DNA of 64,000 nt from a virus (IMGVR_UViG_3300032007_000017), one strand, 5' to 3'; shown: positions 56,889 to 64,000, counted from the first letter of the stretch. The notes: generated from the sequence alone by a model not told the origin. Made by a program: numbers and translations.

Positions 56889-57590
56889 ATGAAAGGTGAA
56901 TATGGAATCTTTACAGAGATGATTCTTCAAGAGAGATATCTCTTAAATGAAGAAGATCTTTACTATAATAAAGATAAATGGGATAAAGGACAAACCAATC
57001 TTTGTTTTATTACTGGTCATAGTGGATCTGGTAAATCTACAATGGGATCCAATATGCAAAAAGGTAATATTACATGGATAAATCTAGATGATCTTCAGTG
57101 TGTAAAAGATCATTTTACAATGGCAAATCTTAAAGAATACTCGAATCTTATCTATAGTTTCTTTGCTGGTCCTGGAAAGAAATGGTATGTTGGATTTAAT
57201 GATGGTATTCCAGAAGAATTTCAAAAAGAGGGAGAATATGAACGAGCATTATTTAATGATTTCATTGACTATGCTATTCAATATTCTAAATCTCATAAGA
57301 ATGAAAGATTTGTCATAGAAGGAATTTGGCTATTTCTATTTATCGATCCTTCTAAACTTAAAGATTATGCTGTTTATGTAAAAGGAACTAGTATGATTAT
57401 AAGTAAAATTAGAGGGATTAAGAGAGATGCTAAGAATGATTGGAAAGAAGCAAAAGATAATAAAGAGAAAGCCAAAATTATAGTATCTACTCTTAGAAGA
57501 CTAATAGTCAATAATCAATATACTGATTTTGAAGGTAGAATAAGAACCTTTAGAAAGTACTTTGAAAATTTAATAAAGAGAGCCCATTAG
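56889..57590 (+). CDS. P-loop NTPase/kinase
   Basis: CFITGHSGSGKST, FVIEG. Confidence 0.7.
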   Translation: MKGEYGIFTEMILQERYLLNEEDLYYNKDKWDKGQTNLCFITGHSGSGKSTMGSNMQKGNITWINLDDLQCVKDHFTMANLKEYSNLIYSFFAGPGKKWYVGFNDGIPEEFQKEGEYERALFNDFIDYAIQYSKSHKNERFVIEGIWLFLFIDPSKLKDYAVYVKGTSMIISKIRGIKRDAKNDWKEAKDNKEKAKIIVSTLRRLIVNNQYTDFEGRIRTFRKYFENLIKRAH

Positions 57591-57643
57591 GGCTCTCTTT
57601 ATTTTTTATGCTGAGTGAGATGATTATCTATATTTATATATCT

Positions 57644-58807
57644 TTAAGTATAATATTGAATAATACAAATACCATCTCCACCATCATGAATCATAATTCC
57701 AGCACCTTGTATAAGACCACTACCTCCACCACCAAATCCAGCAGAATGGCAATTTTCTCCTCCTTTTCCATAACTAGCTCCACCCCCACAATAGTTTCCT
57801 CCTTTGCTAAAATATCCACCTCCACCACCAAATACTTCTCCACCATCTCCGCCTCTTCCATATCCACCACCTCCACCACTAGCCGCACGCCAACCAGTAC
57901 TACTACCAGTAGAATAAGACCAATATGTACTATTTCCTCCATTTCCACCATAACCCCCACCACCTCCTACTCCGCTATATGATACCTGCTGAGTGCTATA
58001 ATTTCCTCCACCACCATTACCGCCGAATCCTCCCCCTCCTCCACATATTCCATTTTTATTTGATACATTTTTGGTACCCAATAATCCCCAACCTCTACAA
58101 TCACTAGGAACACGCGAATTACTCATAGTATTTGTTCCATTAGTTGCTGATTTTGTATTATTACCTCCATTACCTCCATAAGTACCACCAGTTCCACCAG
58201 TATATAAAGCTCCACCACCACCTCCATAAGTACCACCACTACCACCAGTAGCATAAGTGCCACTACTTCCTCCACCTCCTCCCCATGTTCCTCCAGCACC
58301 TCCATATTCTCCCCCTCCACCGCCAAACTGATATCCTATCCCTCCACCACTAGATCCACCTCCACCGCTTCCACCATTACCACCATATCCATATGTATGA
58401 GAACCACCGCTACTATCTTGTATTGATCCTCCTTTTCCACCATTGGCACTTAGATTACTACTACCACATATAAAAGAAGATGTACCACCGGTTGTTCCAT
58501 TATAATAATTGCTACTAATCGAATAATTATTTCCTCCTCTTCCAATAATAATATTTGCAGTGTTTCCACTTTTAATATCAAATTCTCCATTATTCATCCA
58601 TCCTCCGCCTCCACCAGCCATAGCAATATCTGATGATAACCATCCAATTCCAGCCCCTCCACCTCCAAATATTCTTACACTAATATTTCCAGTATGCTGT
58701 GGTATAACCCAATTATTTGTATTGGATATTATAACTTCTGTTTTTAAAACACCAGTACCCCCACCAGATCCAGAACCACCTCTACGAGAAATTATACCTT
58801 CAGACAT
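57644..58807 (-). CDS. Glycine-rich protein, paralogue A1
   Basis: MSEGIISRRGG...GGDGICIIQYYT; GGxGG repeats. Confidence 0.8.
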   Translation of the reverse strand: MSEGIISRRGGSGSGGGTGVLKTEVIISNTNNWVIPQHTGNISVRIFGGGGAGIGWLSSDIAMAGGGGGWMNNGEFDIKSGNTANIIIGRGGNNYSISSNYYNGTTGGTSSFICGSSNLSANGGKGGSIQDSSGGSHTYGYGGNGGSGGGGSSGGGIGYQFGGGGGEYGGAGGTWGGGGGSSGTYATGGSGGTYGGGGGALYTGGTGGTYGGNGGNNTKSATNGTNTMSNSRVPSDCRGWGLLGTKNVSNKNGICGGGGGFGGNGGGGNYSTQQVSYSGVGGGGGYGGNGGNSTYWSYSTGSSTGWRAASGGGGGYGRGGDGGEVFGGGGGYFSKGGNYCGGGASYGKGGENCHSAGFGGGGSGLIQGAGIMIHDGGDGICIIQYYT

Positions 58808-58811
58808 AAGA

Positions 58812-58900
58812 AATGCACCTTCCTTGTGAGGAAGGTGCATTATATGCGCCCTCCTCGAATTTGTAGTTTTTAACTACACTTCCGGGGGGGGGGGCAAACT
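58812..58900 (-). promoter_or_regulatory. Structured leader with G11 tract and SD-sequestering hairpin (homologue at 62234-62318 with G10)
   Basis: CCCTCCTCGAATTTGTAGT..AACTACACTTCC-G10/11-CAAA repeated; SD inside a 12-13-bp hairpin. Confidence 0.7.
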
Positions 58901-58958
58901 GAATAAGGTTACCCCTATAATTATGATTCATCTTCATATTAGATTATACTCTTTTCTT

Positions 58959-60257
58959 TTAAGTATAATATTGAATAATACAAATACCATCCCCACCATT
59001 CCCACCAACATCTCCCCATCCTCCACCTCCAAACATTCCAGTTTTATGACCACTGTTTCCTCCCATTCCATATCCACCACCGCCTCCTCCTCTCCCACCT
59101 GAACTTCCGCCTCCAGGAGCAAAATATCCACCTCCACCTCCACCACCATTTCCGCCTTTAGCTTTTTTTCCATATCCTCCCCCACCCCCACCACCTTCTG
59201 TAGTTCCTTCTCCGCCATCTCCGCCATATCCACCACCTCCACCTCCACCACCATTACCCCAAGTTAAAGCACTGCAATAGGCATTTCCTCCATTGCTACC
59301 ATATCCACCACCTCCACCTCCACTTACCATAATATGATACCAAGTATCTTCATCATGTTCTACATAAGTATTTGTATATGAACTACCGCCATTTCCGCCA
59401 TATCCTCCCCCTCCTCCATAATTATTGCCTCCTCTTCCTTCTCCTCTTAATAATACTCCTCCTACATTATCTACATTAGTCCAAGTAGAGGTATTAGTAC
59501 CATCTTGAGAATTAGTAAAATTATTATTTTTACTATTATATATTCCACCGTTTCCGCCATAAGTCCCTCCTCTTCCACCATTAACGCAAGCAGAGATATT
59601 TGAGTATAAAGATATGCTCGTGATCCTAATACTTCCTCCCCCTCCTCCACCATAAGTTCCTCCGTTTCCACTTAAACTAGTTTTGAGATTATTTCCACCA
59701 AGTTCACTAATATGTATATATCCACCACCTCCGCCTCCATAAGTTCCTCCATTTCCACCATACCAACCTCCTCCCCCACCACCCCATATACCACCATTGC
59801 CTCCAGATCTATTTCTATTAATATCAAAATGTGTTTGGCCTCCTCCCCCAAATTGGTATCCACTTCCTGCATTAGGTCCTCCACCTCCAGATCCTCCAGA
59901 TCCTCCAGTTCTAGACTCTCCACCCCCTCCTCCATTGGCACTTAAATAACTACCAAAAGAAGTAGTGCCACCACTATTACCTCCAGCACTTTGATTTTTT
60001 CCAGAATTTCCACCTAACCCAATTTGTACTGATATATTGGTTCCATTAGGAATATCAAATTCTCCATTATTCATCCATCCTCCTCCCCCTCCTCCACAAT
60101 TGCCGCCTCCACCTCCACCACCAAATAATCTTACACTAATATTTCCCTTATGATCAGGAACAGTATAAGTTTGTGATTCAAATATCATATCCGTAAATAA
60201 TGCGCTTCCTCCTCCTGATCCGCTTCCTCCTCGCCGACTGATAACCGCCTCACTCAT
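58959..60257 (-). CDS. Glycine-rich protein, paralogue B1
   Basis: MSEAVISRRGG...GGDGICIIQYYT; in-frame upstream extension open to 60476. Confidence 0.8.
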   Translation of the reverse strand: MSEAVISRRGGSGSGGGSALFTDMIFESQTYTVPDHKGNISVRLFGGGGGGGNCGGGGGGWMNNGEFDIPNGTNISVQIGLGGNSGKNQSAGGNSGGTTSFGSYLSANGGGGGESRTGGSGGSGGGGPNAGSGYQFGGGGQTHFDINRNRSGGNGGIWGGGGGGWYGGNGGTYGGGGGGYIHISELGGNNLKTSLSGNGGTYGGGGGGSIRITSISLYSNISACVNGGRGGTYGGNGGIYNSKNNNFTNSQDGTNTSTWTNVDNVGGVLLRGEGRGGNNYGGGGGYGGNGGSSYTNTYVEHDEDTWYHIMVSGGGGGGYGSNGGNAYCSALTWGNGGGGGGGGYGGDGGEGTTEGGGGGGGYGKKAKGGNGGGGGGGYFAPGGGSSGGRGGGGGGYGMGGNSGHKTGMFGGGGWGDVGGNGGDGICIIQYYT

Positions 60258-60929
60258 ATATTTCAGCACTCCTTTCATTTTCGAGGAGAGCGCTGACAAA
60301 ATTAAGAAGAAGTAGCAATTCCTTGCTACTTCATATTTATTACAGTCTTCTTTATCATCAATCCTATTATCAAGATGATTACTCTCTAGATCTCTATATC
60401 GATTACTATTATCAACCCCATGATAATAGTCATACTGTCGTCTTCTTCTCTTCAACAATAACAAGATAATTGCCACCTCCTTATTGTAGAATATATTTCT
60501 ATATCTATATCAAATAAATTTATTTTTTACAAAACTTCGCATATATGGGAATTTATAAGAAACGGCGACCCGTTTGATAGCATCCACCCTGCTATCGTTC
60601 GAGTCGCCGTCGCCGTTTTGTAAATGAATTTTCTTTATACTTTCTCTTAGTAAATATAAAGAAAAGAAGAGACATGACCCGAAAGTCATGTCTCTTATTT
60701 AGATTACATTTATTAGAAGAGATAAATGTATTAAGAAAAGGCAAAGATATACATGGAGTTACCAAGCCTTAAAGTTTCAGATAAGAGACACCTCTCTCCT
60801 CCCACCTCCCTATCATCCTAGGGGGGGGGGCATCTCAGGTTGTCTGTTGTAGAAAACTACCTTTCTCTGGCCTGGGAAACTCCACTTTCTTTATCTGAAT
60901 GTTTAAAGTGTTGAAAAATATTACAATGA

Positions 60930-62228
60930 TTAAGTATAGTACTGAATGATACAAATTCCATCTCCACCTCTATGCCATGGATAAGAAATCCAAGTAGACT
61001 CACTATTTGATCCACCTCCACCTATACCGGCGCTTACCATATATTCTGCTCCGTTTCCATAACTACCTCCACCTCCTAAATATTCATTATTTCCATCTCC
61101 TCCTTTTCCATACCATCCACCTCCACCACCTCCATTATTTCCACCACGCGCTGTTTTTCCATATCCACCACCCCCACCACAATTAAATCCTCCATCTCCA
61201 CCATATCCACCACCTCCGCCTCCACCCCAATAATTATTATATGCATCTCCTCCATTACTTCCATATCCCCCACCGCCTCCACCGCCAAATGCTCCTCCAT
61301 TCCCTCCATTTCCGCCAAATCCACCACCTCCGCCTCCACCGCCTTGATAACTATTTTTACCATTTACTCCACCTCGTCCTCCTTTTCCCCATCCTCTTAA
61401 ATATTCTCCAGTAGCTGGATCTTTATCTACATTAGTCCAAGTAGAGGTATTAGTACCATTATTACCATTTGTAAAAACTCCTTTATAAGAATCACTTCTA
61501 TAATATCCTCCATTCCCTCCATTTCCACATAATCCAGAATTACCCTCAGAACTATTTTGCGTATTAATACATCCACCATATCCTCCTTTATCTCCTTTTT
61601 TTCTATAGATGCTGGCACTACCACCCCCTCCCCCTCCACCACCATAATACCCGCCATTTCCACCATTTGACCATCTATCTTCATCATCTACTGCTCCTCC
61701 CCCTCCACCTCCGCCATAATATCCGCCATCTCCTCCAGTACAATACCTCCATGTTCCTCCACCACCTCCTCCACCATAAGTTCCTCCATTTCCGACATAG
61801 AATCCACTTCCTCCGCTTCCCCCGCCACATTGAAAATTACTTCCACCACAATTTGCTCCCCCACCGCATCCTCCTCCATCTCCACCACCATTTGCTGACA
61901 CATAACTACCAAAGGAAGTAGTTCCTCCAGCTTCAGAACTCATTATTCCGCCTTTACCAACAACTATTTCTATTTCTTGACTAGGAATAACTTCTATTTG
62001 TTGTATATTTACATTTCCTCCATTTCCAGATTTCCATCCATATCCTCCTGTATTATAAGTACCAAAAGCTCCTGCTTGACCTCCTCCGACACATATAACT
62101 GTAATAGTATTATTTTTAATATTTTTTGGAATAATAAAATTAGTATTTCCGAAAAATGATTGTGTGATTAATTCTCCACCGCCACCAGATCCAGAACCAC
62201 CACGTCTAGAAATTACTGCCTCTGACAT
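60930..62228 (-). CDS. Glycine-rich protein, paralogue A2
   Basis: Same termini as the paralogues. Confidence 0.8.
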   Translation of the reverse strand: MSEAVISRRGGSGSGGGGELITQSFFGNTNFIIPKNIKNNTITVICVGGGQAGAFGTYNTGGYGWKSGNGGNVNIQQIEVIPSQEIEIVVGKGGIMSSEAGGTTSFGSYVSANGGGDGGGCGGGANCGGSNFQCGGGSGGSGFYVGNGGTYGGGGGGGTWRYCTGGDGGYYGGGGGGGAVDDEDRWSNGGNGGYYGGGGGGGGSASIYRKKGDKGGYGGCINTQNSSEGNSGLCGNGGNGGYYRSDSYKGVFTNGNNGTNTSTWTNVDKDPATGEYLRGWGKGGRGGVNGKNSYQGGGGGGGGFGGNGGNGGAFGGGGGGGYGSNGGDAYNNYWGGGGGGGYGGDGGFNCGGGGGYGKTARGGNNGGGGGGWYGKGGDGNNEYLGGGGSYGNGAEYMVSAGIGGGGSNSESTWISYPWHRGGDGICIIQYYT

Positions 62229-62367
62229 ATAAAAGTCACTCTCCTTAGAGGAGAGTGACTAATAGCACCCTCCTCGAATTTGTAGTGTTTAACTACACTT
62301 CCGGGGGGGGGGCAAATTGACTAATATGAAGATGAATCATAATTAGATACCCCTTTATTTAAAAGAT

Positions 62368-63594
62368 TTAAGTATAGTATTGGACAATGCAGATACCATT
62401 ACCACCTCTACCAGGATATACTCCAGAAGTAGCATTACAAGCTCCTCCACCAGCTCCTATACCACCATTTTTTCCATTACCAATAGTAGTATAAATTGTT
62501 CCATGACCACCATTTTCATAACCTCCCCCTCCACCTCCATCACTTCCGCCACAACTAAAATATCCTCCGCCACCTCCACATCCGCCTCCTCCACTAGCTC
62601 CTTTTCCATATCCTCCACCTCCACCACTTCCAGATTGTGAAGAATCCCCACTACTACCATTTCCTCCATTTCCTCCATATCCACCACCACCTCCACCAGC
62701 AGGATAAGTTGTAGATGTATATGATCCTCCATCTCCACCATATCCTCCTCCCCCACCATATCCATACCAAGAACTGTTTTTATACCATCCATTTCCTCCA
62801 TTTCCTCCAAACCCTCCTCCACCACCAAATGCATGATTTGCAGTATTTATTACATTGCTTGAATTTCTCATATATCCTCCTCTTCCCCATCCTCTTAAAT
62901 ATTCTCCTGTCTTAGGATCTTTATCTACATTAGTCCAAGTAGAGGTATTAGTACCATCGGTAGCATTAATACTGAGATTTCCTCCATTTCCTCCATAAGT
63001 ACCACCTATTCCTACATTACTACTATACATCCCACATCCTCCACCACCTCCATATGTTCCACCATTCCCACCATTACCATATCCTCCCCCTCCCCCTCCA
63101 TAAGTACCACCATCTCCACCATTTCCATCGCATCCTCCTCCTCCGCCACCCCATATTCCTCCGCCCCCACCATGTGTTCCTCCTCCTCCTCCAAATTGAT
63201 ACCCATACCCACCATTTGACTTACCTCCCCCACCACTACCTCCATTGCCACCAGTTCCAACTGATCCTCCCCCTCCTCCATTAGCACTTAAAAAAGTTCC
63301 AAATGTTGTTGTTCCACCACTACTACCACCATAAGCGTCATGCCCATTTAAACCTCCATTTCCTATAGTAATACTTACAATAGTCCCATTAGCTATATCA
63401 AATTCTCTATTATTCATCCATCCCCCACCTCCCCCACCACGTCGAGCTCCTCCACCTCCACCTCCAAAAATAAATACGCTAATATTTCCTATATGAGATG
63501 GAATAGCATAAAGATTATTTTGCCTAATAATATCAGTGTGCAACTCTTTTCCGCCAGATCCTCCACCACGCCTACTAATTACCGCCTCACTCAT
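62368..63594 (-). CDS. Glycine-rich protein, paralogue B2
   Basis: Same termini; in-frame upstream extension open to 63711. Confidence 0.8.
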   Translation of the reverse strand: MSEAVISRRGGGSGGKELHTDIIRQNNLYAIPSHIGNISVFIFGGGGGGARRGGGGGGWMNNREFDIANGTIVSITIGNGGLNGHDAYGGSSGGTTTFGTFLSANGGGGGSVGTGGNGGSGGGGKSNGGYGYQFGGGGGTHGGGGGIWGGGGGGCDGNGGDGGTYGGGGGGYGNGGNGGTYGGGGGCGMYSSNVGIGGTYGGNGGNLSINATDGTNTSTWTNVDKDPKTGEYLRGWGRGGYMRNSSNVINTANHAFGGGGGFGGNGGNGWYKNSSWYGYGGGGGYGGDGGSYTSTTYPAGGGGGGYGGNGGNGSSGDSSQSGSGGGGGYGKGASGGGGCGGGGGYFSCGGSDGGGGGGYENGGHGTIYTTIGNGKNGGIGAGGGACNATSGVYPGRGGNGICIVQYYT

Positions 63595-64000
63595 ATATTT
63601 CAACGCTCCTTTTCTTGAGGAGGGCGCTGACAAAATTATAAAGAAGTAGCATCCCATGCTACTTCTTTCTTTCTTTCTATATCCATTAGATGATAACAAC
63701 AAGAATGCCACCTCCTTGTCTATATTTATATACCTATATCATTTAAATACCCTTAAAATGCACGATAAAAATCCTATACCATTCTTGGTATAGGATTGTA
63801 ATGTCATATTCAATATAACAAAGATCAGTTATTAGTATTCTTTACATTATTCCTAAATAAAGAATATTAATAAAAATGATTAAAGAGAGAGATTAGAATG
63901 ACATTCATCTTATATCCAAGATAAAATCTCACCCACCTCCTCTCTCCTCCCTAGGTAACTAGAGCGAAAATGCTCTTCTATTATGGGCCTTCCTTAGGGG

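Follow-up and report, generated by a model that had tools for sequence, protein, structure and literature searches.

What opens the ribosome-binding site of a phage gene whose Shine–Dalgarno (SD) sequence is locked in an RNA hairpin? The question is raised by a 64,000-nt stretch of viral DNA (IMGVR_UViG_3300032007_000017; the whole stretch is referred to as the window), which looks like a section of a large phage genome and carries four glycine-rich paralogues on its minus strand, arranged as two B–A pairs, B2–A2 and B1–A1. A first-pass annotation of the window had proposed that an element between each B gene and its downstream A gene, here called E, is an activator strand that frees the ribosome-binding site of either A or B. 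The answer that we favour, and hold to be probable rather than secure, is that the A genes are gated by phase-variable translational coupling, which depends on an upstream open reading frame (uORF) running across a poly-C tract. The four genes are as follows:

62368..63594, minus strand: gene B2, 408 aa from the conserved MSEAVISRRGG start; the frame is open upstream to 63711
60930..62228, minus strand: gene A2, a glycine-rich paralogue of 432 aa
58959..60257, minus strand: gene B1, a glycine-rich paralogue of 432 aa with a PF21722 match above threshold
57644..58807, minus strand: gene A1, a glycine-rich paralogue of 387 aa with a predicted fold like that of phage tail-tip/fibre proteins

Relatives of the locus

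A protein search for homologues returned hundreds, many of them on contigs of ~240–275 kb. Contigs were fetched from at least seven lineages, giving 23 A leaders (16 distinct), 15 B–A pairs from relatives for the comparison of pairs, and 24 contigs holding a B–A pair for a check of orientation. Wherever a relative has an A gene, B precedes A on the same strand at a distance of 130–150 nt, and poly-C tracts stand before both gene types. The SD hairpins and the complementarity of E recur in every related phage contig fetched. No near-identical DNA was found in the phage collection, and IMG/VR yielded no relatives by protein patterns or by DNA motifs. In a scan of metagenomes by pattern, none of the matches listed (at least 120 loci) belonged to the family, all being chance matches.

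Hairpins at the ribosome-binding sites

Folding agrees with the first-pass annotation that the SD of each of the four glycine-rich genes is locked in a hairpin. The hairpins, of which those of the A leaders are named P2, are:

58812..58841, minus strand: P2 hairpin of A1, sequestering the SD; 13 bp, about −21 kcal/mol
62234..62260, minus strand: P2 hairpin of A2, sequestering the SD; 12 bp, about −20 kcal/mol, with a terminator-like score
60263..60296, minus strand: B1 leader hairpin, formed by the anti-SD (60293-60280) and the SD arm; −16.7 kcal/mol, z = −3.1
63600..63630, minus strand: B2 leader hairpin, formed by the anti-SD (63628-63617) and the SD arm; bulged, −12.4 kcal/mol

The A hairpins are perfectly paired, and the B hairpins are weaker and bulged. 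Taken alone, the B2 hairpin is not significant against shuffled sequences (z = −1.1), yet it is conserved in all relatives. At 47 other ORFs in the window the SDs are open and the median leader folds with only −5 kcal/mol, so the SD hairpins are specific to the glycine-rich family. Across the A leaders P2 is a perfect stem of 10–16 bp (−18.5 to −23.4 kcal/mol) that occurs with at least 10 different stem sequences, its two arms covarying. A terminator scan scored P2 as terminator-like, and P2 may also act as a weak terminator.

A uORF across the poly-C tract

In every A leader, an ATG located 25–46 nt upstream of the poly-C tract and mostly preceded by AAAGGGG (a weak SD) opens a short ORF across the tract. 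The tract is read as Ala-Pro-Pro-Pro, which any tract length encodes. The frame right after the tract is open through E and through both arms of the SD hairpin in 23 of 23 A leaders, and it ends at a stop at −4, −2, +1, +5 or +13 relative to the A ATG (TAATG, ATGA or ATGNNTGA). The other two frames stop 2–28 nt past the tract in all leaders but one. As the distance from tract to ATG (67–85 nt) falls in all three classes modulo 3, this frame logic is not simply inherited spacing. Dinucleotide shuffles reproduced a frame open to the ATG in 11.5% of cases per leader, compared with 16 of 16 distinct leaders observed, and an early stop in both off frames in 30% of cases, compared with 15 of 16. The comparison establishes both the architecture and its frame logic.

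In the window the two A leaders are in different states:

58800..58937, minus strand: uORF of A1 in the ON frame, 45 codons, running through the C11 tract and on over E1 and the SD hairpin
58884..58894, minus strand: poly-C tract of the A1 leader, 11 C's
62293..62340, minus strand: uORF of A2 in the OFF frame, 15 codons; it crosses the C10 tract (Ala-Pro-Pro-Pro) and meets a TAG stop before E
62303..62312, minus strand: poly-C tract of the A2 leader, 10 C's; 12 C's in the near-identical contig L007

By frame, A1 with its 11 C's is therefore ON, its uORF ending at a TGA that lies 5 nt past the initial base of the A1 ATG (ATGTCTGA), and A2 with 10 C's is OFF. The same holds across the leaders compared: all 13 contigs whose tract has 11 C's keep the uORF in the read-through frame, and none of the 10 whose tract has 9, 10 or 12 C's does so. 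In the tract-less relative L008, in which CTCTCTCTT replaces the poly-C, a 32-codon uORF ending in TAATG is kept, and by its sequence this leader would be a fixed-ON form. In gene calls the read-through uORF appears as a gene of 40, 57 or 32 aa that overlaps the start of A. Leaders of this kind would explain the 30–57-aa 'genes' that are called before such fibre genes, as well as inconsistent start calls for B.

The start regions of the A1 and A2 uORFs, 3.4 kb apart, are linked by a perfect inverted repeat of 25 nt (58918-58942 and 62321-62345), which supplies an in-frame ATG in either orientation. Similar inverted repeats with clade-specific sequence are found in other clades (23 nt at 100% in L002, 26 nt at 96% in L005), and the palindromic core ATGAWTCAT also occurs in B leaders. 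The repeat might reflect leader–leader RNA pairing, a palindromic protein site or old inversions.

Tract length differs between samples

The homopolymer C tracts of the window, all above the ~8 nt at which slippage becomes likely, measure C10, C10 and C11, and there are none elsewhere in the 64 kb (0.23 expected). In relatives the tracts contain 8–34 C's. Polymorphism of tract length between samples is established: ten contigs from ten samples, with a leader that is otherwise identical, contain 13, 12, 11, 10, 12, 10, 12, 10, 10 and 12 C's. In cross-sample comparisons with exactly matched flanks, the A-type tract differs in four of six, and the longer B-type tracts are identical in three of three; they are also identical in L005 and L006. 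That the longer B-type tracts are constant while the shorter A-type tracts vary argues against simple assembly error.

Other runs were noted in the relatives. A poly-A tract just past the B stop, ~150 nt before the A start, differs between samples in L143-L152 (A7 versus A10), and the run after the leader terminator varies in L149 (T6 versus T8). A B-type element at L138:12791-12870 has C34 followed 21 nt later by G26, which would make a long perfect hairpin unless it is an artefact of assembly.

Proposed gating of the A genes

We propose that only one of the frames following the tract would carry ribosomes through E and P2 to the A start codon. In a leader with 11 C's, this open frame would be that of the uORF; ribosomes translating it would melt P2 and terminate at the A start, and A would be made by termination–reinitiation (ON). 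With 9, 10, 12 or 13 C's, the uORF would stop a few codons past the tract, P2 would stay closed, and A would be OFF or low. A change of tract length by slipped-strand mispairing would in this way toggle a virion-surface paralogue within the phage population. The consequence of tract length for the frame of the uORF can be read from the sequences of 33 contigs, 14 of which are in the ON frame, and A translation would be expected to follow that frame.

Several points weigh against this proposal. Noise in assembly or consensus could account for part of the differences in tract length from one assembly to another, and slippage of RNA polymerase on C10–11 could make every genotype leaky. The A leaders are of shared ancestry, so 16 of 16 amounts to fewer than 16 independent trials, with about seven lineages represented. 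Ribosomes translating the poly-C in an OFF frame could free E to open P2, in the manner of ermC, blurring the distinction between ON and OFF. Furthermore, E is invariant at the nucleotide level in three reading registers of the uORF and perfectly matches the B anti-SD, which would be needless if only coupling mattered and suggests that something more is encoded.

If the proposal is correct, a family of large (~240–270 kb) uncultured phages has placed a slippage-prone tract in a tiny upstream ORF that is wired to a locked ribosome-binding site and a conserved RNA helix. The population would keep several fibre paralogues and vary their display stochastically, with the proteins never truncated, which would have a bearing on host range and on how phages evade receptor-based resistance. 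In one compact and testable locus, DNA slippage would be tied to uORF translation and to RNA structure, and maybe also to a kilobase-range RNA contact in a DNA phage. The scheme is a combination of known ideas with classical translational coupling, not a new category.

Fold of the A leaders

The minimum-energy fold of all 16 distinct A leaders has two domains, P2 and a second helix, P1. In P1 the poly-C tract and 3–5 flanking nt are paired with E and its flank; the helix contains two C·A mismatches and encloses a variable hairpin. RNAalifold detects compensatory changes at three flank pairs of P1 (UA/GC, GC/AU/GU and AU/UA), and covariation is established for P1 as it is for P2. Since E is paired with the poly-C in every minimum-energy fold, it is not a free strand. 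The idea that E is an activator freeing the A or the B site is thus upheld in part: the pairings are real, conserved and covarying, but the strand is occupied by the poly-C and lies inside the uORF. Its chief role would be that of a partner of the poly-C.

E can also pair with the anti-SD of its own A gene. When the poly-C and the SD arm are both blocked in constrained folding, a hairpin of 10–13 bp between E and anti-SD(A) forms in 16 of 16 leaders. This gives the A leaders the four-segment pairing topology of ermC/cat attenuation, in which segments 1:2 and 3:4 alternate with 2:3, a leader ORF lies over segment 1 and the SD is in segment 4. A ribosome pausing at Pro-Pro-Pro on the poly-C could accordingly free E to pair with anti-SD(A) and expose the SD, so that A would respond to polyproline stalling (EF-P or Pro-tRNA status) and not to tract length. 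Such attenuation would fit the presence of Ala-Pro-Pro-Pro at every tract length and the position of the OFF-frame stop, which, like that of ermC leaders, falls after segment 1 and before segment 2. However, P2 is stronger than the pairing of E with anti-SD(A), and with only the poly-C blocked it is still favoured in 15 of 16 leaders. Attenuation also leaves unexplained both the frame that is open exactly to the A start and the read-through uORF in the tract-less relative. Unlike in ermC/cat, the leader ORF has one frame that continues up to where the controlled gene begins, and no inducer is evident. We consider attenuation of this type improbable; in the predicted folds, the uORF ribosome itself would be the simplest opener of P2.

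Long-range complementarity of element E

The elements and their B-leader partners are:

58859-58846, minus strand: element E1, TTCGAGGAGGGCGC, containing the core GAGGAGGG
62278-62264, minus strand: element E2, TTCGAGGAGGGTGCT, which supplies the 3' strand of P1 and is a complement of both anti-SD(A2) and anti-SD(B2)
60293-60280, minus strand: anti-SD(B1), GCGCTCTCCTCGAA, pairing with E1 over 14 bp including one G·U
63628-63617, minus strand: anti-SD(B2), AGCGCCCTCCTC, pairing with E2 over 12 bp including one G·U

Both complementarities that had been described for E, with the adjacent anti-SD(A) and with the anti-SD(B) 1.3–1.4 kb upstream, were found again, and so was their survival of sequence changes: the deviations in the window are both G·U on the sense strand, and the pairings are conserved in relatives. 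On the RNA-sense strand, the two B anti-SDs are the only sites within two mismatches of the E complement; the A anti-SDs match it at three mismatches, and there are 9 hits in total compared with 3.3 expected from shuffles. The 8-nt core GAGGAGGG is repeatedly present inside glycine-rich ORFs and is generic there, so the specificity of E lies in its flanks only.

In 12 of the 15 B–A pairs from relatives, the B anti-SD region has its longest perfect complement in the locus (12–16 nt) in the E of the A leader that follows, 1.1–1.5 kb downstream. The duplex between E and anti-SD(B) has an energy of −24 to −29 kcal/mol in all 15, about that of the net P1 and the weak B hairpin (−7 to −17 kcal/mol) combined. 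Covariation across related phages, which the first-pass annotation had named as a check, is present: the flanks of E and anti-SD(B) covary between clades (TCGAA/TTCGA, TCTGAAA/TTTCAGA and CTG/CAG), with compensatory pair types at four flank positions. Cognate B–E partners have longer perfect extensions than permuted ones, towards the stem (P = 0.0018) as well as towards the loop (P < 5e-5), both values being inflated by clade relatedness. Regarding the concern that the complementarity might be no better than that of generic SD-like and anti-SD-like sequences, the 8-nt core is indeed generic, but the flanks outperform permuted partners. At the level of sequence, we regard the long-range complementarity of E and anti-SD(B) as real. 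A specificity of E for the B gene of its own pair was considered and rejected, the extensions being about equal for cognate and for non-cognate partners in the same locus (4.4 versus 3.8 nt).

This complementarity admits a further role for the tract. Out-of-frame ribosomes might cover the poly-C and stop before E, and the freed E might then pair with the B anti-SD over 1.1–1.5 kb and open B; in-frame ribosomes would run over E and open A, which extends uORF-dependent coupling rather than excluding it. We rate this variant as unlikely, though far from negligible. In its favour are the duplex energy, the 12 of 15 pairs in which E is the longest perfect complement, the flank covariation and the G·U character of both deviations in the window. 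In the B hairpins, CCUCCUC and its 3' flank are mostly in the loop, where they would form a natural toehold, and the hairpin is always bulged because the B anti-SD fits E better than its own SD. Against it, the contact would span a translated ORF of 1.3 kb. Within a genome there is no cognate specificity, and E1 of the window fits B2 better than B1. A singleton B gene without A or E downstream keeps the same anti-SD sequence. B leaders also own E-like G-rich strands, upstream and next to their own poly-C tracts; ribosomes on the in-frame upstream ORF of B (described below) would cross the B hairpin anyway, and covariation between clades can also reflect a common ancestry of the SD(B) arm and E. 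That one poly-C tract serves as a two-way selector on a bicistronic B–A mRNA, slippage swapping which paralogue is made, is doubtful. If true, it would be a mutational switch read via long-range RNA strand exchange and not a simple on/off.

A more sceptical explanation is that nothing specific is at work, the observations arising from generic complementarity of SD-like and anti-SD-like sequences in a G-rich family, combined with assembly noise. The recurrence of the core within glycine-rich ORFs and the error-prone nature of homopolymers in short-read assemblies would agree with this. It is hard to reconcile with the frame logic (16 of 16 leaders versus 11.5% in shuffles), with the covariation of P1, P2 and the flanks of E and anti-SD(B), with the variation of short A-type tracts but not of longer B-type tracts, and with the lack of SD hairpins at other genes of the window. 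We find it scarcely credible.

Orientation of the B genes

The first-pass annotation had offered, as an alternative, that B flips by DNA inversion at the inverted repeats on either side of it (anti-SD(B) and E). Invertible tail-fibre segments are well known from Mu (Gin) and P1 (Cin), as is the Hin system of Salmonella, and inverted repeats likewise flank a variable fibre-gene segment here: perfect repeats of 12–16 bp flank B in most relatives, and a second inverted repeat of 23–26 bp joins the uORF starts of different A leaders. In contrast to the Gin/Cin/Hin systems, the repeats flanking B are short, no inverted form was seen, B and A being co-oriented in 24 of 24 contigs holding a B–A pair, and no recombinase Pfam family was found among the called genes within 10 kb of any locus. 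The geometry also gives no alternative product, as a flipped B would be antisense to its own leader and A would not be brought to a promoter. Each repeat in the window contains a DNA mismatch, which is a G·U pair in RNA. Inversion is therefore a very improbable explanation, and this part of the earlier annotation was not borne out.

B leaders and the unit between the pairs

The frame of B is open well upstream of its start:

60258..60476, minus strand: in-frame extension or leader ORF of B1, starting after a strong SD (AAGGAGGTG), with a terminator-like hairpin at 60332-60309
63595-63711, minus strand: in-frame open extension of B2, with a terminator-like hairpin and T-run at 63668-63640

All B genes, in the window and in relatives, have such an in-frame open extension of 43–113 codons upstream of the MSEAVISRRGG start. 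Its median length in 15 of 15 B genes is 69 codons, compared with 2 and 14 in the other frames. In amino-acid sequence the extension is not conserved; it crosses a conserved hairpin-plus-T-run and then the SD hairpin, which suggests a long isoform or a translated attenuator leader. A uORF-based action of the B-type poly-C tracts was considered and rejected, as 14 B leaders displayed no consistent pattern of frame, start or stop.

A separate structured element lies between the two pairs:

60655..60903, minus strand: structured unit of ~240 nt; minimum free energy −84.9 kcal/mol, z = −5.7

In this unit, a B-type C10 tract (60830-60821) pairs with a G-rich strand that mimics an SD, and a strong terminator stands at the end (60696-60667). 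No reading-frame logic was found in the unit, and the tracts of such units do not vary between samples. The unit may represent an independent small RNA, or else the 3' end of the upstream transcript. A second copy, at ~63770-64000, is cut by the end of the window.

Comparison with known systems

In the RNA phage MS2, coat and replicase are coupled through a structure that sequesters the ribosome-binding site, involving the long-distance Min Jou interaction. As in MS2, the downstream site of the A leaders is closed by structure and would be opened by ribosomes in the upstream frame, and a complementarity of kilobase range touches the region of a ribosome-binding site. MS2 has no hypermutable tract and its long-range partner is within the translated upstream gene, whereas in the present locus neither partner is within the canonical B ORF.

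Bacteria classically use homopolymer slippage for phase variation, and pilC of Neisseria is a contingency locus with a genic poly-G/C tract. In phages, to our knowledge, homopolymer phase variation is documented mainly in Campylobacter phages, with the tract inside the receptor-binding gene. Campylobacter Fletchervirus phages are reported to carry hypermutable poly-G tracts in the genes for their receptor-binding proteins (Sorensen et al. 2021, Cell Rep 35:109214, listed among the references of PMC10877375). The present locus shares with Fletchervirus and pilC a slippage-prone G/C homopolymer of ~10 nt whose length differs between otherwise identical genomes and whose frame change would switch ON and OFF, and with Fletchervirus the tie of the tract to phage tail-fibre-like genes. 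It differs in that their tract is reported to lie in the structural gene and to truncate the protein, whereas here it lies in a separate uORF, would act via coupling and forms one strand of an RNA helix.

Two bacterial leaders resemble P1. In Helicobacter pylori, the G-repeat of the tlpB-hp0102 leader is the target of the small RNA RepG (PMC8295292). Like the A leaders, it is a phase-variable homopolymer in the leader of a bicistronic mRNA, with C/U-rich:G-rich pairing and a length that sets post-transcriptional output; unlike them, it is regulated in trans by RepG, in a graded manner and without a uORF or frame logic, whereas here the partner E is in cis and the tract is translated (PMC8295292). 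In the 5' untranslated region of Haemophilus influenzae hmw1A, the simple-sequence repeat pairs with a G-rich arm in a hairpin on which both expression and changes of repeat number depend (PMC12721329). P1, in which poly-C pairs with E, shares this layout of a repeat paired with a G-rich arm, but hmw1A has heptanucleotide repeats, RNase III processing and no uORF (PMC12721329).

Proteins and neighbouring genes

The window encodes a family-B DNA polymerase, gyrase A and B, an NAD-dependent ligase, an SMC-like ATPase and TnpB. The same genes are found on a 270,305-bp ENA contig and on a 67-kb JGI contig (L007), and the latter carries a third B–A pair past the point that matches the end of the window.

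The four glycine-rich proteins are clear paralogues, 49–58% identical to A1. In a Pfam profile search for PF21722 (Gly_rich_2), B1 scored 29.7 bits against a cut-off of 24.3, B2 (23.1) and A2 (20.8) fell below it, and A1 gave no hit. AlphaFold, given 47 homologues, models A1 with confidence (predicted local distance difference test score, pLDDT, of 90.4). Compared with solved structures, the model matches Bxb1 tail-tip chains (E = 1e-5), the ALK/LTK glycine-rich domain and the fibre of cyanophage Pam3 (E = 3e-3, template-modelling score by target 0.49). In BFVD it has 228 matches at E ≤ 1e-3, many of them phage 'glycine-rich domain', 'tail fiber repeat' and 'minor tail' proteins. A PDB sequence search gave no hit. 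In one relative, the B–A pair comes after a head-tail joining gene. On the strength of the predicted fold and of this position, it is plausible that the A and B proteins are virion-surface, tail-fibre-like proteins.

No Rfam family and no tRNA was found in the 64-kb window, and a scan for sigma-70-type promoters gave no more hits than in shuffles. A candidate promoter motif, AACA-N6-TA, has only one intergenic copy in the region (60903-60892). An extra in-frame ATG of A1 is present at 58840 on the minus strand, 9 nt past E1; gene callers start there, giving a 398-aa product. A role of E as the SD of such an alternative start was rejected, as it holds for A1 only, with no conservation in A2 or the relatives. 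Between A1 and a convergent ATPase-like gene (56889-57590) stands a strong hairpin that would terminate transcription in both directions (57572-57603).

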